Made by a program: the position numbers and the translations under genes. Positions 9,540-57,412 of a stretch of 57,836 bases of DNA are shown here, piece by piece. How positions within the stretch are numbered: position 1 is the stretch's first letter; each line of letters starts with the position of its first letter. Below the pieces are notes generated by a model. That model did not search any database. It was not told the DNA's origin and saw only the letters and a list, made by a program, of their open reading frames with translations. This DNA is from Chiloscyllium plagiosum (lineage: Eukaryota), in assembly GCF_004010195.1 (NCBI RefSeq), contig NC_057753.1, forward strand, positions 14,052,485 through 14,110,320, read 5' to 3'.

Positions 9540-10010
9540 AGAGTCATAGAGTCATAGAGACATACATCATGGAAACAGACCCTTCTGTCCAACCCGTCCA
9601 TGCCGAACAGATATACCAACCCAATCTCGTCCTACCTGTTAGCACCCGACCCATATCCCTCCAAACCCTTCCTATTCATATACCCATACACATGCCTCTT
9701 AAATGTTGCAATTGTACCAGCCTCCACCACATCCTCTGGCAGCTCATTTCCATACACGTACCACCCTTTGCGTGAAAAAGTTGCCCCGTAGACCTCTTTT
9801 ATATCTTTCCCCTTTCTCCCTAAACCTATGCCCTCTAGTTCTGGACTCCCCGACCCCAGGGAAAATACTTTGTCCATTTATCCTATCCATGCCCCTCATA
9901 ATTTTGTAAACCTCTATAAGGTCTTCCCTCAGCCTCCGAAGCTCCAGGGAAAACAGCCCCAACCTGTTCAGCGTCTCCCTGTAGCTCAGATCCACCAACC
10001 CTGGCAACAT
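9540..10010 (-). mobile_element. CR1-type LINE 3' fragment
   Basis: LSYRETLNRLGLFSLELRRLREDLIEVYKIMRG...FFTQRVVRVW and a (gagtcata)-type tail. Confidence 0.9.
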
Positions 10011-17932: not shown

Positions 17933-20545
17933 TAGAACATACAACATAGAACAATACAGCACAGAACAGGCCCTTCGGCCCACGATGTTGTGCCAAACAT
18001 TTGTCCTAGCTTAAGCACCTATCCATGTACCTATCCAGTTGCCACTTAAAAGTCACCAATGATTCTGACTCTTCCACTCCCACAGGCAGCGCATTCCATG
18101 CCCCCACCACTCTCTGGGTAAAGAACCTACCCCTGACATCCCCCCTAAACCTTCCACCCTTCACCTTAAATTTATGTCCCCTTGTAACACTCTGTTGTAC
18201 CCGGGGAAAAAGTCTCTGACTGTCTACTCTATCTATGCCCCGATCATCTTATAAATCTCTATAAAGTCACCTCTCATCCTTCGCCGTTCCAATGAGAAAA
18301 GGCCTAGCACTCTCAACCTATCCTCATACGACCTATTCTCCATTCCAGGCAACATTCTGGTAAATCTCCTCTGGTAAATCTCCAAAGCTTCCACATCTTT
18401 CCTAAAATGAGGAGACCAGAACTGCACACAGTACTCCAAATGTGGCCTTACCAAGGTCCTATACAGCTGCAACATCACCTCACGACTCTTGAAATCAATC
18501 CCTCTGCTAATGAACGCTAATACACCATAGGCCTTCTTACAAGCTCTATCTACCCGAGTGGCAACTTTCAAAGATCTATGAACATAGACCCCAAGATCAA
18601 TCTGCTCCTCCATCTTACTAAGAATCCTACCGTTAACCCTGTATTCCGCATTCTTATTTGTCCTTCCAAAATGAACAACCTCACACTTGACAGGGTTGAA
18701 CTCCATCTGCCACTCCTCAGCCCAGCTCTGCATCATATCTAATTCGCTTTTCAGCCGACAACAGCCCTCCTCACTATGCACAACTCCACCAACCTTCGTA
18801 TCGCCTGCAAATTTACTGACCCACCCTTCGACTCCCTCTTCCAAGTCATTAATAAAAATTACAAACAGCAGAGGACCCAGAACTGATCCCTACGGAACTC
18901 CACTTGTAACTGGGCCCCAGGCTGAATATTTACCATCTACCACCACTCTCTCACCTTAACCTATGCCTTTTAGTTTTAGATTCCCCTACCCTGGGGATAA
19001 AGACCTTGGCTTTTCACCCTATCCATGCCCCTCATGATTTTATAAACCTCTATAAAGTCACCACAGCCTCCAACACTCCAGGGAAAGTAGCCCCAGCCTA
19101 TTCAGCCTCTCCCTATAACAAAACACCTCCAGTCCTGGCAACATCTGTGTAAATCTTTTCTGCACCCTCTCAAGTTTAACAACATTTTTCCTATAGAAGG
19201 GTGACCAGAATTGGAGACGGTATTCTAAAAGTGGCCTCACCAATGTTGTGTACAGCCATTGCTTCATTAATCACATATACTTCAGCTTTTCTATGAGATC
19301 AATTGTATTTGTCACTACCATAATTAGTTTATAATTTATTAAAGGAATAATGGTCACATTAACACAGATTCTTAGCATACCTTCTCAAAGGTCAATCCGT
19401 GCTGGCTGTCCCTAATCAAGCAGTGTCTTTCCAGATACTCATAAATCCTATCCATCAGTACCCTTTCCATTACTTTGCCTACCACGGAAGTAAGACTAAC
19501 TGGCCTGTAATTCTCGGGGTTATCCCTATTCCCTTTTTTGAACCCTGTCAAGTGTGAGGTTTTTTGAACATTCGCCACTCTCCAGTCCCCTGGCACCACC
19601 CCCATTGACAGTGAAGACGAAAAGATCATTGCCAACAGTTCTGCAATTTCCTCTCTTGTTTCCCACATAATCTTAGGATATATCCTGTCAGGGCCGGGGG
19701 ACTTGTCTATCCTCAAGTTTCTCGAAATGCCCAACACATCTTCCTTCCTAACAAGTATCTCCTCGAGCTTACCAGTCTGTTTCATACTCCCTTCTTCAAC
19801 AAGAAGGTCCCTCTCATTTGTAAATACTGAAGAAAAGTACTCATTCAAGACGTCTCCTATCTCTTCCGATCTACTGTCCTTGATCGGACCTACCCTCGTT
19901 CTCGTCATTCTCATGTTTCACACATACGCATAAAAGGCCTTGGGGTTATCCTGATCCTACCCGCCAAAGATTTTTCATGCCCTCTCATAGCTCTCCTAAT
20001 CCCTTTCTTCAGCTCCCTCCTGGCTGTCCTGTATCCCTCCACTGCTCTGTCTGAACTTTGTTTCCTCAACTTTATGTAAGCCTCCTTCTTCTTCCTTACA
20101 AGACATTCAACCTCCCCCGTCAACCAAGACTCCCTCACACGACCATCTCTTTCGTGACTGACAGGTACATACATATCAAGGATACGTCGTATCTGTTCTT
20201 TGAAAAAGTTCCACATTTCAACGACATCCTTCCCTGACCGCCTATGCTCCCAATTTATGCTCCTCAGATCCTGTCTTGCAGCTTCGTATTTATCCTTCCC
20301 CCAGTTGTAAAACGTGCCCTGTTGCACGCACCTATCTCTCTCCATAACCAAGGTGAAAGTCACAGAATTGTGGTCACCATCACCAAAATGCTCACCCACT
20401 AACAAGCCCCTCACTTGTCCCGGTTCGCGACCAAGTACCAAATCCAATATGGCCTCCCCTCTGGTCGGACAATCTACATACTGAGTTAGAAAAGCTTCCT
20501 GGACACAATGCACAAACACCATCCCGTCCAATCTACTTGATCTAA
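17933..20545 (-). mobile_element. Composite CR1-type LINE: relatively young copy (17933-18950 and 19375-20545) interrupted by a different CR1 subfamily fragment (18951-19260)
   Basis: ORFs 19911..20531 (PTRGEAILDLVL...GDGDH, endonuclease), 19372..19914 (KSPGPD, NYRPVSLTSVVGK, SQHG) and 18233..18844 (SKFAGDTK, LVRPHLEYCVQFWSP). (agaacat)-type tail. Confidence 0.92.
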
Positions 20546-22487: not shown

Positions 22488-23664
22488 CAATGAACGCACT
22501 CCAGATTTTTTTCCAAACTGTGACACGGACTTATGAATTGAGGCAAACTCGGCACATATTCTCGAGAGTTCAAACACAATGAAAGGTGATCACAATGAAA
22601 TTCACAATGTACTTTGGCGGGTGGACATACTGGAGGTTTCAAATAGATGGGAGTCTAGAATTATGTCACTATTCGAAACTGAAGTAATTGCCTCTGAGTT
22701 CTGATCTGGAAAGAAATATTTTTTATCGATGATTAGAATACCTTCGAACTCTCTACTCCAGAGGACCGTGGATGCTCAGTCTTTGACCATGTTTAAAGTA
22801 GAGTGGGGTATGTTTCTAATCATTAAAGAGGTGCAAGGTTATTGGATTGGGGGAGAATAAAATTCGACATGGTGGATGCATGCCAATCCCTCACAATATA
22901 CGTACGAAGAAGGAGAAGGAAAAATAGAAGCAGAAACTATAGAATGCGTCAAAGAGTTACCATCCTAACGTCTCAAACAAAAAAAAAATGTCGATTTATC
23001 GGAATGCTATTAACAAAATAACTATCGTTGAATAGAGGAAAGAAACGCAAGAAATTATAGTTAGGATGCAGTAAGTCAGAAATAAGCTGCTGAAGCTTGA
23101 AAAAAAATAAACACAAACATACCAATAATAATGTGAATGTTGAACACAGAGAGACAACACTAAAGTTTCAAACAGCATTGTTAAGGACAACAAATTCGCA
23201 AAAATGTTTTTTTTTACAACACATATGCTGAGCAATATAATAATGAGGAAAGAGGAAAGTGACCTATGATACGGCCCAGCTAGTCATAGCTGTACCAGAT
23301 GGGAGCAACACTTTAGATTGATACTGCAAAATCAGGGCACTGCAGTCAAGCAGTTAGATTTTTTTTTAAAAATCAATAAAGTGAATGACATATTAGAAAG
23401 GAGATTGCAATAGATTGGGGGGGTCAAGAGAAGGGGAGGGAGGGTGGGAGCGAGTGTTTGCCAACGACACTGATAGGTGGAAATAGAGACTGAACACAGA
23501 AAGCATGGCTGAGCATCAAGGAATCGTCGAAACTTGAGAATGAACGTTTTGGGACTATAGTCAAGCAAACCAAATGCAAAACCTTTTAATGAAAGTTTGC
23601 TAAAAATTAGTACCTAATGAGACAACGTGATACAAATAAAAGAGGGAAACTTTTATTTTTCTTT

Positions 23665-24566
23665 TCATTGCTTTATGCAACTAGTGAAGATAGTGAAGGG
23701 AGACATCAACGTATTCTTTAGCTCCTCACGGAATTTATTCTGGGCTATTGTATATATGAAGACATTGTTGCAGGAATTGATCATTTGGAGCATGATAGTC
23801 GTCTCTTGAAGGATGTACTGAGGGTCATTGAAGTCCAGTCCACCGAAGTAACCTTCTCCTGAAATCTGTACGTACAAAAACCGTCCAACATAGGTGGCCC
23901 ACAAGAAAAGGAAACTAAGAGAGATCGCAAAAAGGAGCACAATAGATTTCTTGCGATTGGAAATCTCCTGATCACTTCGATTCTCGGCGCTCCTGATCCT
24001 TTTCCGGGCTCTGCTGGCTGCTAATATGTTAGTTACAGTGATTGCATTGAGCAGCAGAATAAGGAGAAATGGGAGAAATGGAACGAGGATGTGATCCAGC
24101 CAGTCGTAAGTCTGCCAGATGGGTGAAATATAATAGCTTGACTTGATAATGCAGAACCAGGGTACACCTTTCAGTGTGTATAATGGCCTAAAGATGAAGT
24201 AAAAGGGGGTGTTTTTGATGCAGCTCAGGATACATACGATTCCTATCACCATCGATGCAGTTTTGTGAGTGCAGTACCTGATCTTCAAGCTCTGGAAGCA
24301 AATAGCCACAAAACGGTCAAAGGTGAAAGCAACCGTTAACCAGACTGACCCATCCCGTATTGTAAAAATCAACATGGTGCTCAGTTTGCATGCAAGTGTG
24401 GTGGAAAGTAAACTGTCTCGAAAGTAAATACGGCCGATTCGATTCAGGATGCACCCATTGATGATTACAAGGAAATCAGTCACTGCTATGGCCACTAGGT
24501 AGTAGGTGATGCAACAGGACAGTCCACATCGACCTCGTGATAGGATTATAATCGCCACCACATTTG
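23665..24566 (-). CDS. GPR139/GPR142-like class A GPCR, paralog A, coding exon 2 (spliced product 323 aa)
   Basis: Acceptor ttcgttcctcacag|CA AAT GTG gives ANVVAIIILSRG. 902 nt open to TGA. Motifs: LVAIAVTDFL (TM2), C3.25, SVWLTVAFTFDRF (TM3), PFLPFLLILLLN (TM5), NNVFIY (TM7). Intron 24567-29650. Confidence 0.95.
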
Positions 24567-24734
24567 CTGTGAGGAACGAAAAGAACTGTTGTTGAAAGAA
24601 TCTTATTTTTTCAGCGAATCTTTAGCAGTAATCCTCATGCAATCTTTCGCTGTAACTTTTCTTTCCCACCTGTTTAACAACGCTAGCCATCGTCTATTTG
24701 AAAAATAATGCTCAGAATTTGGCATCTCATAATC

Positions 24735-25990
24735 AATTAATTGAATTGAATTGAAGTGAGTTGAATTGAATTGAATTTATTGACACATGTACCGAGGCAC
24801 ACTGAAAAGCTTTGTCTTGTGAGCAATACAGACAGATCACAGAGTTAACAAGCATTGATAAGCAAATAATAGGTAAATGGCAGCAGAAACAAAAACACAG
24901 GTGCAGGCGTATGTTAAGAATTTGTGAGTCCATTCAGTATTCTAACAAAAGTAGTATACAAACTTTTCGAAACTGGCTGGTGCATGTTCTCAGGCTTCTG
25001 TACTTTCTCCACGATGATAGATGTTGTAGAAAACTATTTCCAGGGTGGGATGGATCTTCGAGAAGGCTGGCAGACGTTCCTTGACAGCAGGTCTGATAGA
25101 TGGATTCTGTAGATGGGAGGTTGGCCTTTGTAATTGTCCAGGCCGAGTTCACCACTCTCTGTAACCGTGCCTGATCCGGAATGGTACAGTTGCCATAACA
25201 GGCAGTGATGACATCCAGACAGAATGCTCTCGATGGTGCACCTCTAAATGTTGATAAGGGTACTGACAGTCATGCCAAATTTCCTCAGCATCCTGAGGAG
25301 GAAGAGATATTGTAGGGCTTTTGTAACCAGTGAGTCCACATGAAGCGTCCAAGAAAACATGTTGTGAATGCCCCCTCCCAGGAGCTTGAAACTTTCCAAT
25401 CTTTCCATCTCTGTGCTGTTAATGTGTGTATGTGAGTGTGTGCGTGTGTGTGTGGGGGTGGGGTGGGGTGCGGTGCGGGGGGAGCATGAGCAAACCCCGC
25501 TGAAAGTCAATAATGACTTCCTTGATTTTGCCAGTATTGAGAGCTCGGTTGATGTGAGTGCACCATTTATCCATATCTTCCACCTTCAGTTTTGTCGCCA
25601 TCTAAGAGTTGACCAACTATAGTGGCATCATCAGCGTACTTGTAAATGGAATTAGTCTGGTATTTGGCGATGCAGTCATGGATATACAGTGAGTACAGAA
25701 CGAGGCTGAGTACGCACCCCTGGGAGGGGGGTGTCTAGTGTTGAGTGTATTTGAGAATGAAATGTTGCCCTCAGTCTTCACTGATTGTGGCTTGCAGGTC
25801 AAGACACTGCGGATCCAGTTTCAGAGAGTGGGGCTTAATCTGAAATCACTAAGTATGGTAATCAGTCTAGAGAGGATAACAGTGTTGAATGCTGAACTGG
25901 AATCAATGAGTAGGTTTTTTTACGTTGCTGTTCTTGGTGTCAAGATGTTCTAGGGAGGAGTGAAAGGCAAGTGATATGGCATCTGACGTA
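24735..25990 (-). mobile_element. Rex1/Babar-like non-LTR retrotransposon 3' half, in the intron of paralog A
   Basis: KWCTHINRALNTGKIKEVIIDF and ERLESFKLLG...SWTLHVDSLVTKALQYLFLLRMLRKFGM. YADD-type motif near 25630. (AATTC)n tail at 24735-24778. Confidence 0.8.
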
Positions 25991-27052
25991 GATGCTTGCT
26001 AATACAGAATTCTTTGCAATCTGTCCCGAGCACACACTCCATCCTCTGTTCATGATGGCAAGAAATGTGGGTAGTTCCCAAACTTAGAGACATCCAAGCC
26101 AGTAACCGCCCATAGCCCTCTTTCTTAAAACCCCATTCATTCGTCAAGCGTACACTTAATGAAATACATTGATTTTTGATTTTAACAGTCTCTTTGCTCA
26201 ATTGTGACTGTGGGAATGTTCAATTCAACTTTGGCTGTAAGACCATTACCCACTGATCCTTATTGGGATTAGCAAATGTGCACATGTTTTAGTTCCTCAA
26301 GGATGTATTTTCTTTTCTGGACTGCCTTGGAAGAAACATTGTTTTTTTTTTATTTTAGTATTGGGTAGTTACTGGACCACGCAGAGTATGAGCATATTTT
26401 ATGTCTTTATCTATTTTTGTCACAATCAGGGTGCACTTAAAATACTTTTTTAAAAGGCATTGTATCAGCCGCTTCATTCATCATCTTGCAAATTTTGACT
26501 GCCAATGTGTATGTCCTGTATTTTTTTTTTAATTCTTCTGACTGTTCATCTGATTATGTACCTGACTTCCTTGCATTATGGATGAGTAATTGCTTTGCCT
26601 TTGTAGCAAATGGTTGCCTTTATTCATTCTTATTCCAGAGAGCTTTTGTTTTGCCAACATATGAAAAATGTATGATCACTCTCAGATCATCTATTTTCCT
26701 AAGTGTGATCATTCAATGATATTTCTTCCTGTGAACTTATGACTGTATTGAAGACATTTCAATTGTTTGTCAGAACATCGTTCTCATCACAAATTATTCA
26801 CTTTTGTTTCCAATGCTTTATATTAGGGCAAAGTAGTAGTGCCCAAATTTTGAAGAAGGTAAGATTTGGGTTCAGATCGCAACTGATCCAATAGAGTGCA
26901 CCAACATCTCTCAAGTGGTTAATTGAAAATACTAGAATTTTCCACTGGATGGCTTTTGTGGCAGAATGTCAGTTTCCCTCATGCTCTTGCAAGAAATACA
27001 GAAGTTCAACTAACAACAAGATAAATCATCATTAGGTTAACAAGTCGCTAAA

Positions 27053-27265
27053 ATCCGAAGTCACGTGACGAGAGCTTACAGTCTAATGAGTGTATTTGAA
27101 ATCACAAGCTATCGGAGCTCTGCTCCTTCATCAGGTGTTATGACTTCACCTGATAGAGGACCAGTGCTCAGAAAGTTTGTGATTTAAATAAGCCTGTTAG
27201 ACTATAATCTCGTGCTGTGAGATTTCTGATTTTGTCCACACCAGTCCAAAACCAGGACCTCCATA
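27053..27265. repeat. Short palindromic interspersed repeat (probably Penelope-terminus derived)
   Basis: Inverted arms tttgaaatcacaagct...atcaggtg / cacctgat...tttgtgatttaaa. A related half copy lies at ~32075-32190. Confidence 0.6.
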
Positions 27266-29650
27266 TTTCATTTCATCAAGACAAATTTCGTCACATGGTT
27301 CAGATGAAGACTGTCGAGAAACAGCTCTCTATTTCCATATTATTACAGAATGGGAACTGGTTTTCACCCACACCAATATTCTAAGCAGGAAATCAACACT
27401 ACAATATCATTTACCCAGTAACAATTTGCAGTTGGCTCGGGAAGGGAAACTAATGTCTTTACCTTTCCTCATATTAATTCAACACAGAACTACAACGCCT
27501 CAGCGCAACCTCTTCCACTTTCCTATGTCATTGGTACCTCATGGATAATGACGACTGGACTCTACTCTCCCATTCCAAGTTAAAGTCTCTCCTAGAAGAG
27601 AAATATTGACTTTTGGAACCAGGTAGGTAATACAGATTTAAGATCATTCAATCTTTGCTACTGGAAACTGCATGGATTTCCCAAACAATGTTGTCGCCAT
27701 TTAGTACGATATTTGTCCTTCCACACTTCACTTGAATGACCCTCCGAGCCAAGGTGCCTTTGGCAGTTCGTTCATGCTCCCCGCACTCTGTGGTCTCGTC
27801 CATACTGTGAGCAAAATCCATTATTTCCAGGATAAGGTACTGCTGATGCTCCTGTAAAGCTGAATTCTGCAACTTCGCTGCTGCTTCATTTGCAGTCACA
27901 CCCTCCCTTGTCTGAGCGTGATTGATTGCGAAACATTATTAAAGTATCTCCCTCCCTAATGTAGTGCAGTGTGTACAGCTCAGACTCCAACTAATCAAAT
28001 CCGATCCGAAAATTTTCAGTCAGCTAACATTTGCTGTGCTGGTGTCCAGCAACTCTCATATGGTGTCGCGGCAGAATATGACTTGCTCACGGATATTTTT
28101 CATTTCATTAAATTGGATTTTAAATAATTTAATGGTGAATGTCTTAATTGTATTCTTCAGATATATTAATGTCTCGTGATTTAAACCAATTGGTCAATCG
28201 AAAGGTAACGAAGAAATGTCGAGCAATCACCTAACAAGTTGTCACATTGTGGTTCTTTCAGGAATTTACAAATTGGAATGACTTTCTGCCGCTGCCATTT
28301 TTTTCTCTCCAGGGTTCACTGTCCTCTACACTCGGGTTAACTTGGTCTTTTATAATGTTGCTGACCTGCTTTCAGGTAGATTGAGAAGCAGTTCACATTG
28401 CTCTCTCTCTCTCTCCTGATTTTATGAAGCTGCTATATCCATTAATCCATTTTGCCTTTTAGACTTGATCTAAAAATGAACATTTTGTGAACCATGTCTG
28501 GTAAACTCTTTGCAGTAGCTGATTAAAGAGAGGAATTCCAACTGCACAAGTAGAAACTAAGCAATGCCAAGAAACATTGACCTTGTCAGAGGCAGTCACA
28601 ATCTACTGACATTCCAACCAATACTTTCCAAAAGAACAATTCAAGATCAAATCGTAACTGCACAGGATGAAATAGACAATAACTGTAAAAAACACTTTCC
28701 TCTCAATGTACCTCCTTCGAACATTTCCATATTTAATTGTCAATATCATATTAACAAAGGAGACTGCCCAGTAAGAGTTCACGAGACTGTAACGGATACA
28801 TCCTTCCAGAGATCGCATTGTAACTATGCAGAATTGCTATGTGCATTCCATACCAAAGCGCAAGTATTATAAGGATGACTTTGTGTATTATTTTGTTCTT
28901 CAATATCATTACGAAATAAAAATGCCGTTTATTGCTCAGTGGAACACAATTGTGTGAAACACACTGGATGACAATTAAGTATATTATAACGACACTGAGT
29001 GCTGAGCAGTAAAGTAAATTAATGTTCCTATACTGACATGCATTTCATTGCATAATGGCTGCAGCCATTAAGAAGGACATTCTGCCCATTACGTTCAGAC
29101 TGGCTATTGAAATGATTATCCCACTCAATGGAATCACCCTACCAAAACACTAAACACATAACATTGTTAATTTTGATGTGAACGCCAAGTTCCCTTATGA
29201 AAGCCTTGTTTGAAAATTCTTTTTACCATACAGTCAAGAATGAAAATACAGACTGACTCATTTCCTGAATGTAGAGTCTATTCTTAATATTATGTTTACT
29301 CTTTTAGCGAAGTCTTTTTATGTTTTTTTTTTATTTTATGGTGCCCAGATCTCTATCATTTTATGAGAAGTGACATACTTCAGCTATCTAAGAAACGATA
29401 ATCCAATAAATGTGTGGCATTATAAATGGAGCAATGTCCTTTGTTACCCCTAAAGTAATTCCAAGGAATGCGCGAAATTGATCATAGCATGATATTGCAT
29501 TCAGTATCACATTACTTTAAAGCACTATTCCAACTGTATTTATTTACGTCCCGATCATCCTGATTTTTTTTAAATCCTGATCAGGAAATGGAAGAGATAA
29601 AACCCCTGGAATTTAGCGACTTCATACACTGTAGAGCATTTGTTTCTTAC

Positions 29651-29720
29651 CAGGGGCACCAATAGCGGCGAGAATGGGATAACAAATGGCAAAGACCGGT
29701 CCGTTCGCGGGCGCGTGCAT
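29651..29720 (-). CDS. GPR139/GPR142-like class A GPCR, paralog A, coding exon 1 (MHAPANGPVFAICYPILAAIGAP)
   Basis: ATG at 29720. 70 nt (23 codons + 1 nt) ending at donor G|gtaaga. Same length, phase and similar peptide as the first exons of B and C. Not in the ORF track. Confidence 0.9.
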
Positions 29721-29796
29721 CCTTTTTGAAAAAAAAACAATGGATATTCCCGAAGTTTTAGGCCGTTGCTTTGTGACACGTTGAAATCATCCAATA

Positions 29797-29834
29797 TTTA
29801 TTTAAAGCGAGAGTCTCCAGAGGAGTAATTAATT
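29797..29834 (-). promoter_or_regulatory. Candidate core promoter of paralog A: homeodomain + O/E(EBF)-like motif and TATA-like AATAAA
   Basis: Sense strand AATTAATTACTCCTCTGGAGAC at 29834-29813 and AATAAA at 29802-29797. Positionally conserved in B and C. Confidence 0.6.
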
Positions 29835-30759
29835 TGAAACCTGCACCTTACAACTCAGTGAACAAATAGATTAACTTATTTCCCATTAAATCATTGACAT
29901 TACGATTGTATTTATGCGAGAATCGATAGATACAAATTGTGTGCTTCTCCCCATGTCAGAAACTATATTTTTAAATTTTCATCACTGTAAGCGTAAATGG
30001 CAGATTTGAGTTGAAGTCTCATCTCAACCTTCAATCTGTATCTCTCATCTCTTCAAACTTCCAAAATATTTCCTTCTTTCAGCTGACAGATCGGTTCATG
30101 CATTATCCTCATGACTCACTGATTTTGAATTCAGCAATTCAATCTGACCGAAATCTTAAAATGATTCAATGTCTGAAACATTTGAAATCATGTTTTGGGT
30201 AATAGGGTGGAGTGAAGTAACAACAGAAACATGCCTTGGAAAATTAGCATCAAGGTGACTGGCAGTGGTGAAATCCAAATTGCAAATTGCAAAAGTAAAT
30301 GTTTTGTATAATAGCTGATATAACAGAGTCATGTATCATGTCATTTAAAAAGAATTATGGTCTCAGTCTGAAACAATTTGCACATGGTTTCGTGAAATAA
30401 AAGGACAAGCATATCGTCTTCTGGAATGAAAGGAGCGTTTAATGTGATCAGGCTGCAATATCAGTGAACTAATGGCATGACAAATGTGATAGAAACTGTA
30501 TAGTACAGAAAAATGAGATGATTACTTAATGTAGTTAGAAATTACCAATGAGAAAAGTTTTTAAAAAGGATTTATGTAACACAGTGCAGTCTTGCAATAA
30601 CTGTGCAAGTGCTAAACGGTAGCATAAATCAATGGTGCAAGTTAATCTGAACCGAAACAGAATTTAGTCATACTATCTCGCAGTGCATGGTCTAATGTTA
30701 TATGCACAGCATCAAAGATAAAAGACAGCATAACCAATTGACCGGTTTATTTTCACATA

Positions 30760-31560
30760 AACTGCTGTCGTCCTGGTGAAGGTGGTGGTTGGCAGTAGGA
30801 ACTGATGTAGAGTGCCGAAGCGTTCATTGTGATGAGGAATATTCCAGCTTCGACTGCTCCGTGGGGACTGAGTTTCTGCAATAGGTCTGTAGTGTCCCGA
30901 AGGAAACTGGGGGTTCCTCTTATAATGGGTTAAAAGATGGCCTCGATGTTGCCAGAGAAGCTGTCACGCAGGTCTTCGGGCTGATACGATAACATGTCCA
31001 GGTGTGTTGGCTTTGTGTATCTGGAGAAAGCAGTTGTATTCTTCTATACGAAATATACGCGGGATGAGAGTGACTAGGACAATGTGAAAATCTGGATCTA
31101 AGATGTTGATTAGTCTGTTGAGTCGACAGATATGTTCATTGGTCAAATAATTAGGTCTTTGTTATAGATATTGGCATCAAACGTGGGAACACCACCCACG
31201 ACCTTGTCGGCAGATACTCTTGTAACAAGGCCACTGTCCTCCACTTCATACCGTGTCGGCAATGATGCCACGAGACATGGTAGATTGGCAAGACCATGCA
31301 GATGCAACGACTATGGATGAATTGATACCACATAACAATTGGCAGAAGCTAGACCGCCTCCCCACACATTCTGGAGCAATTCAGTCGTCATGGACATTTA
31401 GCCTTCAATCTTTGTGAGAGCGTCCTTGCAATGCAGAACAACCATGCAGAAACTGACAGATCCATACTTATTAACAGAGCCTCAACTGTGGCCTTGGGTA
31501 CATGCCGTACTACATGTAACCCAACCATCCACTTCTCTATCTATAATTTTTTTACTGTTC
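30760..31560 (-). mobile_element. Decayed Penelope-like RT fragment
   Basis: Minus-strand peptides LQIHKANTPGHVIVS and GTPSFLRDTTDLLQKL...ITMNASALY. Confidence 0.75.
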
Positions 31561-33589
31561 TGTTTGGACACAATAAACGTAATAACTTGTTACAAACTCT
31601 CTATTTTAACTAGTTTATACAATTTTGAATCTCTGGTTAAGTTGGTTCAATTATCAATATTCGACTCTTGTACATACAATGTTATTTCAGACATTCAGTT
31701 TGTCTCCAGAACTACCTCATTTTTATGGTTTTTAAAAATTATCTCTTTGCCTCAATTAAAAGGATTATTGATCCTCCCTTCAATTGTTCAACTGTTGACA
31801 CTTGATATGCATCCTGATGAAGGGCTTTTGCTCGAAACGTCGATTTTCCTGCTACTCGGATGCTGCCTGATCTGCTGTGCATTTCCAGCACCACTCCAAT
31901 CTTGACTCTTATCTCCAGCATCTTAGTACCCACTTTTGCCTACATTTTACACGTCATCTGATGTTTTTCATCACCAGGAGGACTTACTTTTCAGTTTTTC
32001 GACTCCTGACTTGCAACATATGTATACTCTTTTAATCTTTCTGCCATTAATTCTGTGCCCCGTGTGCTTCTCTTCACTTCACCTGATGAAGGACTAGCGC
32101 TGCTAAAACGTGTGATTTCAAATAAATTTCCAAAACTATAACCTCCAGTCATGTATCCTCTGACCTTATCCAACCCATTTGTTCACCAACACCTTTATTT
32201 CAGTGATGAAGACGGAACTCAAAACACCACTTTGTTATCTTCCCCACCTGTGTGTGTGAGAGAGACAGCGTGTGAGAAAGAGAATATATATGTGAGAGTG
32301 AGACAGACAGAGAAAGACATCACATGTTGTCTTTATGTGTGTGTGAGAGTTACAGAACGTGTGTTTGAGAGACAAGGACGTGGAGAGAGAGATAAATCCC
32401 GCCTTATCTCGACCTAAAATGAGGCAACCATAATCTTAAACCGTGTCAGATAATTTAAGGCTCTTCCTTCAAAGTCCAAAAGTTACCAACACATTCAAAT
32501 TCTCGTAATAATATGAATATATTCATTTTGGAAGATGCTTTGGTGAAGTTTGATGTTTTGCACACAGAAATCAAAGGTCTCAGCCAGAGCATATCATTGC
32601 AGAATTCTTCGTGGTAGATTTCTCAAGCTAACCCTTCATCAAAATCATCAATGGCCTTTCCTCCATCATAATGTCAGATGCAGAAATTCACTCATCATTG
32701 CGCAATGTTTGCCTCACATGAATCTTTAGGGACTGAAGCAATCTGAGCTTAAATGTAGCAATAGCACATCGCACTCAGGTTTGGCTGGAGCTGGAACAGG
32801 TACCATTCATGCAATGAAATATCTGGAAATGGAAATCTCGAATGAGAAATAATCAAATCATCACTGCGGGACATTACTGGATTGCACATGCTAAATTACT
32901 CATAGTGTTCAGTGATGTGCATGTTGGATATGTTTTCCGTGTGAAATGCAGGAGTACATGGATAGGGTAAGGGGATGGATCGGGGTTGGTTGCTGTTCGG
33001 AGTTATGTGTGGTTTCGTTAGGATCACTGACTAACTTTCACAGTAAAGGGATTTTATTAACAGTGACTTTCTAAATTGGGCATACGTTTACTGTGGAATT
33101 CGTGGGGAAAATACATAGGCCCCCTCCAGTTCCTTAAAATATGCTAACGATCTAGAACTTGGTGCACAAGGAAACATTTCCAAAGATACAGACAACAAAA
33201 AAATGAGAGCATTGTTCACTAAAATGCGACATTGTAAAGACACCGACAGAAAGCAAGCTGGTGGAATGAACCGCTAGGTGGCAGATGATGTTCGATGTGG
33301 AGATGATACTACTGAGCATCCTTACAGAACTTCTGCAGTCCACATGTTGGAAATCAAGCGCGTTTCGTCGCCTGAGATGGTTCTACTGAGCATCCCCCTT
33401 AAACTTCCACAGCCCACCTTTTGTAAATTAACCTGGTTGCAGCACCTGAGAGGTTTGCTAGCCCTGTATTTACCAACAAATTGGAGATTATTCTATTGCA
33501 CTCTCGACGAATGCGACGTGAATGTCAGGCAGGAGATAGGAAATTCGGAGAAGAATTCTTTGCCGCTATATTTCTATATTCTGACCTGC

Positions 33590-34099
33590 TCCTGTACTCA
33601 CTTCTTCAGTTGCGGGTATCATTTGAGTTTTGGGTGAAATATCACCACTGGGATGTTGTTGTGGGGAATTCAATAACAGCAAAATAATTGAATGTCAAGT
33701 TGAAGTGGTAAGATTGTGATTCAATGGAGATGACTATTGCCTGCATTTGTGTGTAGTGAATGTTACGTTCCCCTTGTCAGTCCCAGCCTGTGAATACTTT
33801 CTTGAATGTAATGCTTCAGGATGTAAGGATACTGCTTCAGTATCGAAATATGCTGCATATTCTGAATATTAAGCAATCATTGTCGACCATCTTCACTTAT
33901 GAATTTATGATGGATGGAAGGGCATTCATACAGTAACGAAGATGGTTGTGCCGAGGACATTAACCAAAGGTATTCCTGCAGAAATGTCCTCGATCTGAGA
34001 TGAGTGATCTCTAACACCTACAACCATCTTGCAATGTGTCAGGCATAATTGTAAAAAACCGACAGTTTACTTACGATGACCACTGATTTCAGTTTTGCT
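33590..34099 (-). mobile_element. Decayed CR1/L2-group LINE fragment
   Basis: Similar by eye to the old LINE at 250-1150. Confidence 0.45.
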
Positions 34100-34811
34100 T
34101 GTTACGACACTGGTAACCCCCTCCTCCCACTGCTTAATTTAAACCAGCAACACATAAAACATTTATCGCGTGCAGTAATCTGTGAAAATTCGAGAGGCCA
34201 AGAAGTATTTAAGGTAAAAATTAAAAACTTTATTTCTTAAAGTATAACAGAGAATAACTAACAGCTCTTTAGAACTCCTTTATCTAACCTATTTTAAACC
34301 TTCCCCTTTTACAAAACTAGTCTGATAAAATTCTCAGTTTAAATGATCAAAAATTTAAATTTCAAAATCATTCAAATTTTCTCTTGGTATTTTCCTCTCT
34401 AAGGTATTTCTGTTTCACAGGTCACTGATTGATAAAGGTATCTTTAAGAGACTTGTTTTTCGGGCAGTGTGTATCTTTAAGAGATTTGTTTTTCCCCGGG
34501 TACAAGAGAGTGTTACAAGGGGACATAAATTTAAGGTGAAGGGTGGAAGGTATAGGGGAGATGTCAGGGGTGGGTTCTTTACCCAGAGAGTGGTGGGGGC
34601 ATGGAATGCGCTGCCCGTGGGAGTGGTAGAGTCAGAATCAGCTTTTAATATTGCTAATATACTGAATTCAAACTTGATTGGAGTTTGGAATTTGGTATTT
34701 TTGGGGGTAAAATTTAAATCGATTGGTCTAATTCGAATGTGTTTCTGGCTCCAGGCAACGGGATACGCTAGTTGCTGGACCAAAAGGTTACATTATATCT
34801 TGTTCATAACA
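34100..34811. mobile_element. Probable solo LTR with an internal CR1 fragment (34489-34642)
   Basis: Begins TGTTACG and ends CATAACA, LTR-type inverted termini like 46522-47168. No clear target-site duplication. Confidence 0.55.
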
Positions 34812-35419
34812 GTTGGTGCTGTCAAGTATTTCTGCTAACTTTTAACTTCCTTAAAGGTACAGTACACTTCTGCACCATCATAACAGTGTTATACCATTAA
34901 GGTGCATACAATAATTGTTTTAATCTGACCACATAACATGTTTTGTCATGCTACCGCGCCTGTCTCATTTGACAATGCATAAACAATGCATTGGCTTCGA
35001 CTGAACTTGGTGTCAAGTACAGCTGTCGCCAATTTCTGTATGACGATATTAGGCCCAGCTTCATTAGCTACTCGAATGCATATCTGTTCGTGTATTATGC
35101 TACCATTTGTCACTGATCGCATGTCACTATTTTCGAGCTCAGTTCTATCCACAATACAGAATGTGCCATTATATTTTCTGTGTCTGCTTTGGAAATGTTC
35201 TCAATGCTAATATCACTGGGCCCACACCTCAATAATTACTCGCGATATTTCTCAGTTTCTATTATTAAGTGGTAACTTTTAGGTTCTTCCTTCCGTGAAA
35301 ATGTTGAATTTAGTTTCAATTTCAACACCTGAGAATTAAACGAACACATAAAATGCTATGCAATCCATATTTGATGAAATATTTGCATATTTTCCATCCA
35401 CGTCATATCCAAATATGTC

Positions 35420-35860
35420 ATAAGGTCATAAAGATATACAGTATTGAATAGGAACGAACTCATCCATGCCGACCTGATGTTCTAAATTAGTCTCGTCCCA
35501 TTTGGGCAGGGTCCCTCGAAACCCTTTCTGTTCATATACTCATCAAGATACTTTTAATATATTGCAATTGCATCAAACTCGAACACTTCCTGTGGCTGTT
35601 CATTCGACACATGAAGAAGGCTTTGTGTGGATGAGTTGCCTTTCATATCTCTTTTAAATCTTTCCCCTCTCACCTTTAACCTATGGCTTCTAGTTTGAAA
35701 CAACCCTAAGCTGGGAACAAGACTCTCTCCATGCCCTCGTGATTTTATAAACTTCTGTAAGGATACCTCTTGGACTCCAATGTTACTGGTACAATATCCA
35801 CAGTCTATTCCCTATTCTGCCTCTGACTGTAGCTCAAACCCTCCAAACTAGGCAACATTC
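35420..35860 (-). mobile_element. CR1-type LINE 3' fragment
   Basis: Similarity to 2370-2850. Confidence 0.8.
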
Positions 35861-35880
35861 TTATACATTGAAACAGATCA

Positions 35881-35945
35881 TGTGTATGCGTGTGTGCGTG
35901 CATGGGTATGTGTCTGCGTGCGTGCGCACGTGTGTGTGTGTGTGT
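35881..35945. repeat. Imperfect (TG)n microsatellite
   Basis: Direct reading. Confidence 0.9.
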
Positions 35946-36235
35946 ACTTCAGATTGTATCACCAGCAAGAACAATATAATTAATATGATATCTAAAAGAG
36001 AGAAAATAATTTTGAACTGGTCAGAGATGAGAAAACACGTTTTTTTTTATTTGAGATCGACCTCAACTCATTGTCAACAGCGGAAGTGAATGTGGCTGCT
36101 GAATGTATTATCAGTTCTTCACCCACAATCAAAAACAAAGAACCACTGCATCTCCCCTTGCAATGTTAGACATTAAAGGCATGAAACTGTGAGTTAATTT
36201 GTTTGTTTGTTGAATGGATGTAAAAAATTCTGTCA

Positions 36236-36271
36236 TAATTAACCCCTCTGGAGATAATCATGCAGAATAAA
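36236..36271 (+). promoter_or_regulatory. Candidate core promoter of paralog B: homeodomain + O/E(EBF)-like motif and TATA-like AATAAA
   Basis: TAATTAACCCCTCTGGAGAT at 36236-36255 and AATAAA at 36266-36271. Confidence 0.6.
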
Positions 36272-36344
36272 TGAGAGATCTTTAGAAAGTGTCTCAGAAA
36301 CAAGCTGCACAACTTGGACAACACCATTATTTTCCAAAAAGGCG

Positions 36345-36414
36345 ATGCATGGTCCAGCAAATGGTTCTCTCTATGCTATTTACTACATACTTCTCGCTGT
36401 TATTGGTATGCCAG
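36345..36414 (+). CDS. GPR139/GPR142-like class A GPCR, paralog B, coding exon 1 (MHGPANGSLYAIYYILLAVIGMP)
   Basis: ATG at 36345. 70 nt ending at donor CCAG|gtaggg. Homologous to the first exons of A and C. Confidence 0.9.
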
Positions 36415-37773
36415 GTAGGGGATGGAATTGATTTTGATTTTTATTCGGTCAAAAGGAAAAAAAGAATCCCTTTTAGAACGCGACTTTACTTAAGGAAACC
36501 TTCAGCTCTGTCTGACCGTAAGATATTTCAGCTGATTCTGATATTTATACGAATTATATAACATGCCGTTATACTCTAGTAAATTACATTACATATACTC
36601 AAAATGAACTGTGAAGCAATGCATGATTATAATATGCTTTACCGCGCAAAATTATGGTTCAATAGTCTATTCAGTAATGGAAAGACAAAGTGCAATTTGT
36701 CCAATTGCATGACTTCATCGGTGTGAATACTGAACATTACATTCAATAATATTGCAGGAAACAGCAGTGTCTTGTTTTCATTTGTTCGTGTGTGTGGTCT
36801 GTTGAGTTATAAAGTATCCTGGTGTAAGAATCATTTTTCTTTCATTGCAATTTCAGAGACTGCATTCCAGATCAATTAATGTTTACATATAAAACACGGG
36901 CATACATTGTAAGAATCTACAGTGCGAACTCAAGAAAATATTAGTTGGAGCATATTGAATTGTGAATGAAAGGCTAATTTATAATATGATATCAAGAATC
37001 AACTATGAAAATGTTTGAGGTGCATTAAATGATCTCGCATATGTCTTGCTTTTGTGTGTAAACCTTGTGGATTTGGATTTTTTTGGACATTATTTTGGTG
37101 AAAACCGGGATTTTTTGCTGTTTCTGGAAATGTCAATATCTATTGTCCATCAATTGTTTTCATCATCAATGGAGTTGCATTACTTTCCTCAACCACGAAT
37201 TATGCCGGCCGTAGGAATATTTCGAGAGATCTGTTTTCTAAAGAAAGACAAACATGACACAAAATGACATCAAAAGAAATTGGAAAAGCACGTGAATTCA
37301 ATGATAATGGAGTTTAAGTTGAATGCAGCACCGAAAACGGCGAGAAGGAGATGGAGAATTTGAGCAACTGAGGCAGTAGTCAGTTGGTATGGGGAGAAGT
37401 GGGGGAGGGGGAATGGATTCAACGGTTTGCACCAGTTCAAAAACAACATCAGAAACATCATTGAGGCAATCATCAACATGCATGCATAAAAGGACAGCAT
37501 TGGAGGCAATTTTCGATTTCCGATAATTGGAGCTTATTCTTTGGTTGGCAAGAGCTGAGAAATAGGAGGAATTTGCAGTGAAGGCAGTGAGTATTAGAAT
37601 TGAAAATCTGGTGGGGTGGGAGAAGAAATAACTCAACCAGTGCAGTGGTAAAGCTGGTATGAAGTAAAGTTTTGTGCCTCTTGGCGCAGCAAGGGTGCCA
37701 TGGTAACAGGTTGGAGGAAGCAGTAACTGATGTTTCGAGAACCTTTGGTAATGTCTCTCTTTATCTCTCACAG

Positions 37774-38675
37774 CCAACTTCATAGCAATCATAATTCTAT
37801 CCCGAGGGCGGTGTGGACTCTCCCGGTGTATCACTTTCTATTTGGTGGCCATAGCGGTGGCTGATTTCCTTGTCATCACCACTGGTTGCTTACTCAACCG
37901 GATCCCCAGAATGTACTTCAGGTACAGTATACTGTCTACAACCCCAGCGTGCAGCCTGAGTGCCGTGCTCGTGTATGTCACACGGGATGGCTCCGTTTGG
38001 TTGACAGTGGCTTTTACCATCGACCGTTTTGTGGCCATCTGCTCCCACAGCCTGAAAACAAGATACTGCACTGACAAAACTGCTTCGCAAGTCATGGGAA
38101 TTATCTGTGCACTAAGCCTCATAAAGAATATTCCTTATTACTTCATATACCAGCCTTTATACGTTCTGGACGAGGTTTCCTGGTTCTGTGACATTAAAGC
38201 CATCTACTATTCCTCGCTAGCCTGGCAGGCCTACGATTGGTTGGACCGGATATTAACTCCTTTTTCACCCTTTCTCCTCATTCTCCTACTCAACGCCTTG
38301 ACGGTAAGACACATCCTTGCAGCCAGCCAAGCCCGCAAGAGGCTCCAACGAAGTCAGAAGGGTGAAGACCAAGAAATAGCCAACCGAAAGAAGTCTATTG
38401 TCCTACTTTTCGCCATCTCTCTCAGCTTTCTTCTTCTTTGGATTACGTATGTCATTTATTTTCTGTATGTGCGAATTAAAGGCGATGCCTATTTCAACAG
38501 TTTGAATTTTAATGACCCTCAATACATCCTTCAAGAGACTACGAAAGTGCTCCAATTACTAAGTTCTTGCAACAACGTTTTCATTTACGCTGTGTCTCAG
38601 TCCAAGTTCAGAGAGCAGATGAAGAATGTGCTAATGTGTCCCTTCACCATTGCAAGTCGTTTCTTCAGTACATAA
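37774..38675 (+). CDS. GPR139/GPR142-like class A GPCR, paralog B, coding exon 2 (spliced product 323 aa)
   Basis: Acceptor ctctctttatctctcacag|CC AAC TTC gives ANFIAIIILSRGRCGLSRC, in frame with ORF 37842..38675. 902 nt with DRF and NNVFIY motifs. Intron 36415-37773. Confidence 0.95.
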
Positions 38676-38819
38676 AAAAACCCTCATTTTTCTTGCATTA
38701 AAATTGCCCCGTGTGCCACTCTCTTTTTCTCTCACCGGAATGAGGAAGTTCTGCATTTAAGATCCTGACGTTGTCAGAAATAGAAGGCTAATTGTGTTAA
38801 TTCCCGGAGATGGGGTATT

Positions 38820-39514
<695 letters not shown>

Positions 39515-48943: not shown

Positions 48944-50067
48944 GCAGGGTTAGATTTCATGGAATACAGGGTGAACTAGCATTTGGGTATTGAACTGGCT
49001 CAAAGGTAGAAGATGGGGGTGGTGATGGAGGATTGTTTTTCAGACTGGAGTCCTGTGACCAGTGGAGTGCCACAAAGATCGGTACTGTGTCCACTTATTT
49101 TCATCATTTATATTAATGATTTGGATGTGAGTTTAAGAGACATAGTTAGTAAGTTGGCAAATGGCACCACAATTGAAGGTGTAATGGACAGCGAAGAAGG
49201 TTATCTCAGATTACAACCGGATCTTGATCAGGTCGGCCAATGGGCTGAGAAATGGACAGATAGAGTTTAATTTATATAAATGTGAACTGCTGCATTTTGG
49301 GAAAGCAAATCTTAGCAGGACTTACGCACTTAATGATAAAGTTCTAGGAAGTGTTGCTCAACAAAGAGGCCTGAGAGTGTAGGTTCCAATCTCCTTGAAA
49401 GTGGATTGACAGGTGGATAGGATAATAAAGAAGGCATTTGGTATGCTTTCCTTTATTGGTCAGAGTATTGAGAATAGGACTTGGGAAGTCATGTTGCGGC
49501 TGTATAGACATTGGTTAGACCACTGTTGGAATATTGCGTGCAATTCTGTTTTCATTCCTAACGGAATGATGTTGTGAAGCTTGAAAGGGTTCAGAAAAGA
49601 TTTATAAGGATGTTGCCAGGATTGGAGGATCTGAGTTACAGGGAGAGGTTGAATAGGCTAGGGCTGTTTTCCCTGGTGCGTCGGAGGCTGATGGGTGACC
49701 TAATAAAGGTTTACAAAATCATGAGGGGCATGGATAGGATAAGTAGACTTTGCTTTTGCTGAGGTGGGCGAGTCCAGAACTGGAGGTCTTAGGTTTAGGG
49801 TGTGAGGGGAAAGATATAAAAGAGTCCTAAGGGACAACGTTTTCACGCAGAGGGTAGTATGTATATGGAATGAGATGCCAGAGGAAGTGGTGGAGGCCAG
49901 TACATTTGCAACATTGAAAGCAAAACTGGGTGTGTATATGAATAGGAGGGATATGAGCCAGGTGCTGGCAGGTGGGACTAGATTGGATGGAATATCTGGT
50001 CGGCATGGACGAGTTGGACCGAAGTCTTTTTCGGTGCTGTATATCCCTATGACTGTATGGCTCTAAG
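48944..50067 (+). mobile_element. CR1-type LINE 3' part inserted in the Gypsy RNaseH
   Basis: SDWSPVTSGVPQRSVLCPLIFIIYINDLD and KLERVQKRFIRMLPGLEDLSYRERLNRLGLFSL. Confidence 0.92.
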
Positions 50068-53867: not shown

Positions 53868-54769
53868 TCATTCTTTGGAGCAACTGGTGACAGCGTCAAT
53901 CGGAAAAATCAGTAGCTTCTTCAACTCCATTCGAAACTTCTTTTGGACTATTGTGTAGATGAAGACATTATTGCAGGAACTGATTATCTGGAGCAAGTTG
54001 GTCGCCTCTTGAAGGATGTAATCAGGGTCATTGAAATCCAAACCAGCGAAGTATGCTTTTCCAGGAATACGCACATAGAGGAAATGTATGACTTGTATGA
54101 TCCATAGGACGAGGAAGCTGAGAGAGATAGTGAACAGCAGGGCTATGGACCTCTTGCGGCTGGCCAACTCCGGGTCTCTATCATTATCTGTGCCATGTAG
54201 TCTCCTGCGGGCTTGGTTGCTTGCCAAGATGTGTCGCATGGTCAGGATGTTGAGCAGTAGAATGAGGAAGAAAGGAAGAAACGGGATTAAAATGTGATCC
54301 AGCCAATCATAGGCCCGCCAAGCGAGTGAGCTGTAATACGCAGACTTGATATCACAAAACCAGGCCACACCATCCACAATATACAAAGGTTTGTAGGAAA
54401 AGTAAAAAGGCACGTTCTTGATAGCATTAAGCAGGCAGACAATTCCTATGACCAGCGACGCTGTTTTCTTGAGGCAATATCTGGTCTTCAGGTGTTGGCA
54501 GCAGATAGACACAAAACGGTCAATGGTGAAAGCCACTGTTAGCCATACTGAGCCATCTCGGCTAAAGTAAACCAGCACAGCACTGAGAGAACAGCCGGTG
54601 GTTGTGGACAGTACACTGTAGGTAAAATAGATGCGAGCAATTCGGTTGAGAATGCATCCGGTGATAATCACAAGGAAATCGCTCACTGCTATGGCCATCA
54701 AATAATAAGTCACACACCGAGAAAGTCCACACTGTCCACGGGACAGAATTACAATGGCCACCAAGTTGG
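53868..54769 (-). CDS. GPR139/GPR142-like class A GPCR, paralog C, coding exon 2 (spliced product 323 aa)
   Basis: Acceptor ttttgtttcactctgatag|CC AAC TTG gives ANLVAIVILSRG. 902 nt open to TGA with the same TM motifs. Intron 54770-56351. Confidence 0.95.
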
Positions 54770-56351: not shown

Positions 56352-56421
56352 CTGGAACACCAATAACAGCGAGAACTGGATAACCAATGGCATAAACGAT
56401 GCCTTTTGCTGGCCCATGCAT
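56352..56421 (-). CDS. GPR139/GPR142-like class A GPCR, paralog C, coding exon 1 (MHGPAKGIVYAIGYPVLAVIGVP)
   Basis: ATG at 56421. 70 nt ending at donor CCAG|gtaatt. Homologous to the first exons of A and B. Confidence 0.9.
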
Positions 56422-56492: not shown

Positions 56493-56528
56493 TTTATTCC
56501 AGGTGCTAGTCTCAAGAGGAATGATTCA
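56493..56528 (-). promoter_or_regulatory. Candidate core promoter of paralog C: degenerate homeodomain + O/E(EBF)-like motif and TATA-like AATAAA
   Basis: Sense strand TGAATCATTCCTCTTGAGAC at 56528-56509 and AATAAA at 56498-56493. Confidence 0.55.
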
Positions 56529-57412
56529 GTTGTGACATGAACTCAGATTGTAAAAATAAACAAAAGTTTTTTTTTCATGGCATATGTTTTCTTTCTATAG
56601 TTTTCACAAAGCGAATGTGTTTTTGTTTTACATGTGTATGACGTGCAGGTTGCAAACGCTGTCATTTTTCAAACCTCATGAGCCATGAACCTATGTTTCA
56701 GTGCAGCGAAAACCACTGAAGTTAGATACAATATTGAGATCCGAGATGGAAGGGAAATAAAAGTCTCTTCCATTCTCTGCCTTGTTCACAAATATTTCTA
56801 AATGTTACATTGTTCTAGTGTCCAATAATGTCCCTATCAGTGATGTAACACTCGGTGGCCTTTTATTCAGTAAATCATCCCCGTTACCCTTCTGAAAAAT
56901 AGGAACAACGTTGGCTATTATCTAATCTTCTGGTGAAAGCCGATACGAAAATATCTTCCAAGTTCCAGAGGCCGACTTCCTTGCATCCTTTGTATCTTCA
57001 TATATATTCCATCAGGGCAAGGGGGACTGATCTACCTTAACAGTATTCAAAGCACACAGTCATCCTCCTTCTTAATAACTATATATCACACGCATTTACT
57101 TTTTTTTCTGCCAACCTTTAGTGCTTTAAGTGGGGCGAGAGGTCAAATGCTATTACAGTACCTTACAAGCCATGACATTTATGCTTTTTGTGAAGATGAG
57201 GTATTTTACTACAATGATTCCAAACTCGCTTTAAAGCAACAGGCCAAGTTGAATTTGAAACATGGCACCACTGTCGTTTATGGAAGATCTTCGAAACACT
57301 TTTGTCGATATCAGTATTGGCGCTTGTGCAGCACGTTGATATTGGCAGCAGTCCAAGACACCATTTCACTATCTTCTTCTCCAGGGGAATAAATGCCGCC
57401 ATTAGACCACAA

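Follow-up and report, generated by a model that had tools for sequence, protein, structure and literature searches.

Does the short element that lies about 100 nt ahead of three receptor genes of the bamboo shark Chiloscyllium plagiosum act as their promoter, and in which cells would it be used? The window, i.e. the whole 57.8-kb stretch of DNA that we analysed, carries three class A GPCR genes (Pfam 7tm_1), here called A, B and C, which are all intact, consist of two exons and are GPR139-like. In each of them coding exon 1 (70 nt) is followed by a GT-AG intron in phase 1 and an exon 2 of 902 nt, and the products of 323 aa show 66–69% pairwise identity:

29651..29720, minus strand: coding exon 1 of gene A (70 nt, GT donor, phase 1; ATG at 29720)
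23665..24566, minus strand: exon 2 of gene A; the spliced product of 323 aa is identical to P0027 (C. plagiosum 'probable GPR139')
36345..36414, plus strand: coding exon 1 of gene B (70 nt; ATG at 36345)
37774..38675, plus strand: exon 2 of gene B; the product of 323 aa is 96.6% identical to P0001 (C. punctatum)
56352..56421, minus strand: coding exon 1 of gene C (70 nt; ATG at 56421)
53868..54769, minus strand: exon 2 of gene C; the product of 323 aa is identical to P0024 (C. plagiosum)

P0027 and P0024, the records for A and C, are both annotated as 'probable G-protein coupled receptor 139 [Chiloscyllium plagiosum]'. A tblastn search found no fourth copy within the window. Decayed interspersed repeats (e.g. 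2356-3488, 9530-10010, 18233-19917 and 48944-50071) fill both the DNA between the genes and the 5-kb intron in gene A, and some of the copies carry reverse-transcriptase-like reading frames and are presumably of the LINE type. Furthermore, a (TTCT)n array of ~700 bp (38818-39514) starts 140 nt past the stop of gene B. A 26-bp satellite is not present ahead of the A, B and C promoters.

The upstream module and its predicted start site

The sequence-only reading had described a homeodomain plus O/E(EBF)-like motif ahead of all three genes. On re-check the motif strings and ATG-relative coordinates that it quoted for A, B and C were all exact, and AATAAA follows the motif in each gene, always 11 nt past the core. 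The following features were located, with the start site predicted as described below:

29814..29823, minus strand: gene A O/E(EBF)-like core CCTCTGGAGA, -103..-94 from the ATG and -51..-42 from the predicted start
36245..36254, plus strand: gene B O/E-like core CCTCTGGAGA, -100..-91 from the ATG and -51..-42 from the predicted start
56510..56519, minus strand: gene C O/E-like core CCTCTTGAGA, -98..-89 from the ATG and -51..-42 from the predicted start
29826..29831, minus strand: gene A homeodomain hexamer TAATTA, 2 nt from the core
36236..36241, plus strand: gene B homeodomain hexamer TAATTA, 3 nt before the core
56522..56528, minus strand: gene C TGAATCA at the place of the homeodomain site, without TAAT; it also fits TGANTCA
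29797..29802, minus strand: gene A AATAAA, a likely TATA-box variant judged by its spacing, -82 from the ATG and -30 from the predicted start
36266..36271, plus strand: gene B AATAAA, a likely TATA variant, -79 from the ATG
56493..56498, minus strand: gene C AATAAA, a likely TATA variant, -77 from the ATG
29771..29773, minus strand: gene A predicted initiator CA, predicted +1 at 29772
36296, plus strand: predicted +1 of gene B at the predicted initiator CA
56468, minus strand: predicted +1 of gene C at the predicted initiator CA
29862..29868, minus strand: gene A forkhead-like TATTTGT, -96 from the predicted start
36200..36206, plus strand: gene B forkhead-like TGTTTGT, -96 from the predicted start
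56556..56562, minus strand: gene C forkhead-like TGTTTAT, -94 from the predicted start

The order of the module is therefore a forkhead-like site (-95), a homeodomain-like zone (-60), the core (-51), AATAAA (-30), CA (+1) and the ATG. Exact CCTCT(G/T)GAGA occurs three times in 57.8 kb, each time ~100 nt ahead of an A, B or C ATG, and the core followed by N11 and AATAAA likewise gave three exact matches in the window, plus one unrelated match with 3 mismatches. When one mismatch was permitted, the core alone was found 7 times with 7.4 matches expected, which is chance level, so that the signal lies in position and conservation. The parts of the composite motif differed in how well they were kept. 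TAATTA is present in A and B, although at unequal spacing, whereas the claim that a homeodomain site is conserved in all three genes fails in C. The proposed O/E-like pattern YYYCARRRR fits all three cores, but in registers that lie one base apart between A/B and C; a single register, YCTC-NN-GAGA, fits A, B and C, and the sole variable base falls in the NN spacer. The heptamers at -96, -96 and -94 are ones that we take to be forkhead-like from the general forkhead consensus. A match to TRTTTRY is common to the three promoters, was spotted post hoc and has a window background of 1.8 per kb; the heptamers are T-rich, which makes chance matches easier. Gene C carries in addition an E-box between core and AATAAA.

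Column identity was scored across A, B and C without gaps, anchored on AATAAA. Nine of 10 columns of the core and 6/6 of AATAAA are identical in all three genes, compared with 1/11 in the spacer, 4/9 in the homeodomain zone, 9/40 downstream and 5/30 upstream; for these three paralogs the motif is thus not, as the earlier reading had thought conceivable, merely as conserved as its neighbours. Fourfold-degenerate sites are identical in A, B and C at 19 of 78 positions (0.24; 37–53% in pairwise comparisons), and three-way retention in the promoter flanks is 0.09–0.23. As core and AATAAA are kept above the fourfold rate, the module is under constraint. We simulated chance blocks in 130 columns at per-column retentions of 0.24, 0.35 or 0.45: at 0.24 a block of 9/10 arose in 0.0018 and both blocks in 2e-5 of the simulations, and at 0.35 these fractions were 0.034 and 0.004, respectively. 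Furthermore, no alignment was found among the introns of the three paralogs, and gene C groups with its whale shark ortholog at 100/100, which indicates that the duplications of A, B and C are old. We are highly confident that the module of core and AATAAA is under selection in these genes, while the identity of the motif counts as about one observation, since the three promoters share a common ancestry. Unspliced genomic reads of a slightly diverged relative were also compared with the window: none of the 10 displayed upstream differences fell in TAATTA, core or AATAAA of A and B, with 0.94 expected (P0 = 0.37) and 49 further differences outside the displayed set, and we attach no weight to this comparison.

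A TATA box lies ~30 nt ahead of a pyrimidine-A initiator. In all three genes the distance from the first base of AATAAA to the A of a CA (29772, 36296 and 56468) is 30 nt, so that at the level of sequence each has an AT-rich box at this distance from a pyrimidine-A; the earlier expectation of a start ~25–30 nt past AATAAA agrees with this prediction. We consider it quite probable that AATAAA is a TATA variant and that transcription would begin at the CA 30 nt downstream, which would make the element a core promoter with a predicted start. The predicted leaders are 52, 49 and 47 nt long for A, B and C (full range 47–52 nt) and contain no upstream ATG. That AATAAA serves as a polyadenylation signal is unlikely, since it stands at a constant position between core and CA and no other gene of the family ends there. 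No RNA run was listed as carrying exon 2 of gene B. Over 23400-38750, reads of two RNA runs (one sampled at 2/100) lay on repeats with essentially none on the exons of A and B, a third run placed no reads, and no pile-up of read starts was listed, which we do not regard as evidence on expression.

Candidate binding factors

The core of the V$NOLF consensus is given as TCCCyngrga in PMC3247239. Compared with this consensus as written, the shark core matches 8/10 positions; the right half is full and both misses fall in TCCC, which would make it a relaxed site. Against TCYC-NN-GRGA, a pattern that we symmetrised from the right half of V$NOLF, the core scores 7/8 in each of the three genes. The window contains 62 sites of this type (1.07 per kb), and at this density the O/E match is suggestive, not diagnostic. 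Only two of the 62 have TAATTR within 3 nt, namely those in the A and B promoters. That an EBF (O/E)-family protein would bind the core is in our estimate somewhat better than an even chance. We infer that a homeodomain protein such as Lhx2 would bind TAATTA in A and B and that a forkhead factor would bind near -95.

Several other factors were considered and rejected. A GATA site (AGATAA) is present in B only and is altered at 36255 in the genomic DNA of the slightly diverged relative; the STAT pattern TTCN3GAA has no match; and no octamer, CCAAT or RUNX site is common to the A, B and C promoters. The BANP/Kaiso motif is TCTCGCGAGA, and the CGCG core that it needs is absent.

The receptor family and its possible role in olfaction

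Of the 2872 candidates from an exon-2 query, 1624 protein clusters passed E<=0.001. Among the best 120 of the 1624 clusters, 117 carry shark or ray names, two were resolved to whale shark and one is unnamed, i.e. 119/120 are elasmobranch; chimaeras are not among the family matches listed. Eight of the 120 clusters belong to C. plagiosum and four of these lie on one 15.3-Mb contig, hence the gene cluster extends past the window. A tree was built from 47 rows selected from 430 proteins plus the three window proteins, and canonical GPR139/142 is absent from it. Its 27 elasmobranch rows form a clade (95/87) that is sister to four amphibian/sturgeon rows (96/83). A search with the sister lineage yielded 25 hits, of which 20 were amphibian clusters, four elasmobranch and one sturgeon, corresponding to about one gene per species in amphibians and sturgeon. 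With 119 of the 120 listed clusters from elasmobranchs and a sister that is nearly single-copy, these results describe a large, lineage-specific and clustered GPCR expansion, and in these data the expansion looks elasmobranch-specific. A natural outgroup for it is the sister 'probable GPR139' gene (P0226, P0407-P0426), which seems to exist as a single copy in sturgeon and, among amphibians, in frogs, salamanders and a caecilian. A second GPR139-like gene (P0225, P0289-P0406), conserved and also about single-copy, was seen in sharks, ray-finned fishes, coelacanth, amphibians and reptiles. Two of its records wrongly bear the name of TMEM183A isoforms, a hint of linkage, and the gene possibly corresponds to a 'GPR210' subtype described in PMC6504862.

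The best relative with a solved structure is human GPR139 (PDB 7vug/9m42, E 4e-10). The window genes are not one-to-one orthologs of mammalian GPR139: the match is distant, and they belong to a multi-copy clade with a different, single-copy sister in a tree that lacks canonical GPR139. The proteins are not members of the OR, TAAR, V1R or V2R families either: Pfam reports 7tm_1 and, for A and B only, a weak Srx match. In 82 homologs of the closest subfamily variability is higher in the extracellular than in the intracellular half (1.29 vs 0.70 bits), as is usual for GPCRs, and 33 deep-pocket positions average 0.90 bits, below the value of the extracellular half. NPxxY is replaced by NxFIY in this alignment. 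A charged pocket is conserved: E7.36 in 82/82 homologs, R3.36, D3.37 and D5.39 in 68 each, D5.42 in 67 and N7.39 in 69 (numbering assigned here). The ligand pockets of ORs are hypervariable; the conserved deep pocket of this family differs from them, which counts against an olfactory role. The conserved charges suggest that the receptors share a zwitterionic class of ligands, e.g. amino acids or peptides. GPR139 is activated by Trp/Phe.

Gene catalogues contain proteins of this family under automatic names. No paper on the elasmobranch expansion was found in the CC-licensed full text of PMC and bioRxiv, a scope outside of which subscription papers lie, and GPR139 had no match in the main text of PMC11979771 and PMC7677710 or in 12 of the 24 supplements of PMC8455134. 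Two metagenome scans contained no shark loci; one of them gave 25 loci at 25–44% identity, which were not used.

We propose that the module is the likely core promoter of three paralogous GPR139-like genes. A dimer of the EBF (O/E) family would bind the YCTC-NN-GAGA core, helped by a homeodomain factor, and the promoter would drive the genes in olfactory sensory neurons. The family would represent a chemosensory repertoire of microvillous olfactory neurons. Duplication would have supplied each copy with a compact promoter of its own, and the likely ligands would be amino acids or peptides. The olfactory reading follows from the anatomy of the family and the likeness of the motif, and we give the reading as a whole, a candidate olfactory receptor family that would be driven in olfactory neurons by a likely EBF-type core promoter, a little less than an even chance. 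The very small olfactory repertoires known in sharks (PMC11979771) count in its favour; that of the catshark comprises, as described in PMC11979771 and PMC10116579, 2 canonical and 6 OR-like genes, a few ORA/TAAR genes and ~34 V2Rs. On the other side, PMC10116579 reports that all olfactory neurons of the catshark are Go/TRPC2-positive, probably without the ciliated class, in which OR promoters are used, and attributes shark olfaction to V2Rs. If these neurons are all microvillous, as it appears, the cell type in which OR promoters normally act is removed, which argues against the olfactory reading. According to PMC3247230, O/E-like sites occur in 39/39 V1R promoters, which shows that O/E promoter logic is not confined to ciliated neurons. 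The lack of TAAT in C and the 1-nt spacing difference between A and B, compared with the spacing-sensitive composite of the mouse, are further points against the proposal. No GPCR is among the 50 most specific genes of a catshark 'brain & olfactory epithelium' library, a weak result given that V2Rs are GPCRs as well. The broadest form of the olfactory reading is plausible, at somewhat less than an even chance: sharks and rays would have formed a fifth, hitherto unrecognised olfactory receptor family from a GPR139-related amino-acid/peptide receptor, which would have adopted the Lhx2/EBF promoter logic of ORs independently and might outnumber the V2Rs. In that case cartilaginous fishes would not, as is currently held, rely on a few dozen receptors for smell.

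Mammalian GPR142 serves as an amino-acid sensor in gut and islets. This would suit an alternative in which the core promoter is real and is read by another factor, e.g. a zinc-finger protein recognising CNTCTGG, with the family acting in sensory or secretory cells of another kind, e.g. in taste buds, gut endocrine cells, sensory neurons of the skin or solitary chemosensory cells. CNTCTGG is found in A and B and is, according to PMC3247230, an RP58-like motif separate from O/E; the core is only a relaxed EBF match, and the forkhead-like site is present in all three promoters compared with two for the homeodomain site. Gene C, however, breaks CNTCTGG (CCTCTTG) and yet retains YCTC-NN-GAGA; the one position that varies lies in NN, where a dimer that reads a palindrome would tolerate it. 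We regard another factor and tissue as unlikely, at something over one chance in five.

EBF1 acts together with FoxO1 in B-lineage cells, and mammalian GPR139 is expressed in the habenula. An EBF protein might bind the module in a lineage other than olfactory neurons, either in immune cells, of the B lineage or another, or in central neurons, e.g. those of the habenula. The EBF-like core with a forkhead-like site in all three genes and the E-box of gene C would agree with this, some catshark OR-family genes are spleen-specific according to PMC11979771, and mammalian GPR139 is expressed mostly in the CNS (PMC8514136). The TAATTA adjoining the core in A and B is an olfactory-type pairing, though, and the size of the family would be hard to square with a central neuropeptide role. 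In the readable supplements of the catshark habenula study PMC11589584 (all but one file), in which gene ids may lack names, no GPR139 label was found. We rate this lineage as unlikely too, at about one chance in five.

It is also conceivable that the element is intronic. An unseen non-coding first exon would then be spliced to an AG close upstream of the ATG, and the conserved blocks would act as an enhancer within the intron or as an alternative promoter. A T-rich tract followed by AG|G lies within 7 nt of the ATG in all three genes and may represent a weak splice acceptor; the tract of gene C has 13/18 pyrimidines with CAG, and a 5' intron is common in mouse V1R genes as described in PMC3247230. 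However, these tracts reach 11–13 pyrimidines of 18 vs 14–16 at the genuine acceptors of the three genes, A and B carry AAG instead of CAG, and the exact 30-nt spacing from AATAAA to CA in all three genes suits a start site, so that we consider an intronic element improbable. That the module has no function, being a neutral remnant of the ancestral gene before duplication or a product of gene conversion, is very improbable: only three sequences are compared, and at a lenient retention of 0.45 a block of 9/10 arose in 0.21 and both blocks in 0.077 of the simulations, but the retention measured at fourfold sites and in the flanks is lower and the duplications are old.

If the preferred olfactory reading were true, an orphan GPCR clade of large size, equipped with an olfactory-type promoter, would alter the picture of tiny cartilaginous-fish repertoires, and homeodomain/EBF logic would have been recruited to an unrelated receptor lineage. 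If the tissue is immune, gut or skin, the module would still offer a first entry point to the regulation of this large family, on which we found no paper.

Comparison with known systems

The GPR139 gene carries an intron in TM1 after the first coding exon. The window genes share this intron position, as well as the class A fold, with GPR139/GPR142 and the fish 'GPR210' subtypes (PMC6504862), and the acidic residue at 7.36 of the window receptors aligns with an Asp of human GPR139. The window genes are distant from GPR139/GPR142, not their orthologs, and belong to a clade that expanded in elasmobranchs. GPR139/142 have a common origin with the protostome MIP, FMRFa and myosuppressin receptors (PMC8514136). 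A precedent for a peptide-receptor lineage giving rise to chemoreceptors is offered by the nematode srw genes, which derive from peptide receptors as described in PMC3963977. Some shark homologs have PF10324 Srw hits, and their Atlas neighbours are Srw/FMRFamide-receptor-like; srw is nevertheless an independent lineage, and the window proteins score 7tm_1, with a weak Srx match in A and B only.

At the level of regulation we compared the module with the Lhx2/Ebf composite motif of the mouse Greek Islands (PMC5608512, PMC11643329, PMC7804114), in which the two sites lie 1 bp apart (PMC11643329). The frame TAATTR-N-YYYY-NN-RRRR was taken by eye from the Sfaktiria probe (PMC5608512 supplement 7). 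Gene A fits it in 8/8 positions (TAATTA and the next 11 nt) as in the probe; B fits in 7/8 and C in 7/8 with GAATCA in place of TAATTR, so that only gene A fits the frame of the mouse composite in full. According to PMC5608512, the Ebf half tolerates pyrimidine/purine runs, binding is impaired by a 2-bp insertion, and the tight composite marks enhancers more than promoters. The mouse motif is mainly a feature of intergenic enhancers, with fixed 1-bp spacing, whereas the shark instances all lie ~100 nt ahead of an ATG, within what is predicted to be a proximal promoter; in B the spacing is 1 nt off, and in C the hexamer is missing. We therefore rejected the element as a Greek Island. A lone match to the frame was seen at 51540 (plus strand) between genes B and C, off any promoter, where about one is expected by chance.

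Among the nearest known counterparts are the proximal promoters of mouse OR and V1R genes. PMC3247239 reports a conserved O/E site within 200 bp in 246/314 mouse OR promoters, with O/E enriched near the start and TATA boxes enriched at -60..-10. The differences are that the shark receptors are GPR139-related and not OR, V1R, V2R or TAAR, that the spacing is rigid across the paralogs and that the O/E core is relaxed. At the level of sequence the A/B/C module resembles an OR/V1R proximal promoter: both have an O/E-like site near the start, a nearby homeodomain site (in the shark, in A and B) and a TATA-like element within -60..-10, both lie in an AT-rich, non-CpG context, and both belong to a clustered multigene GPCR family.
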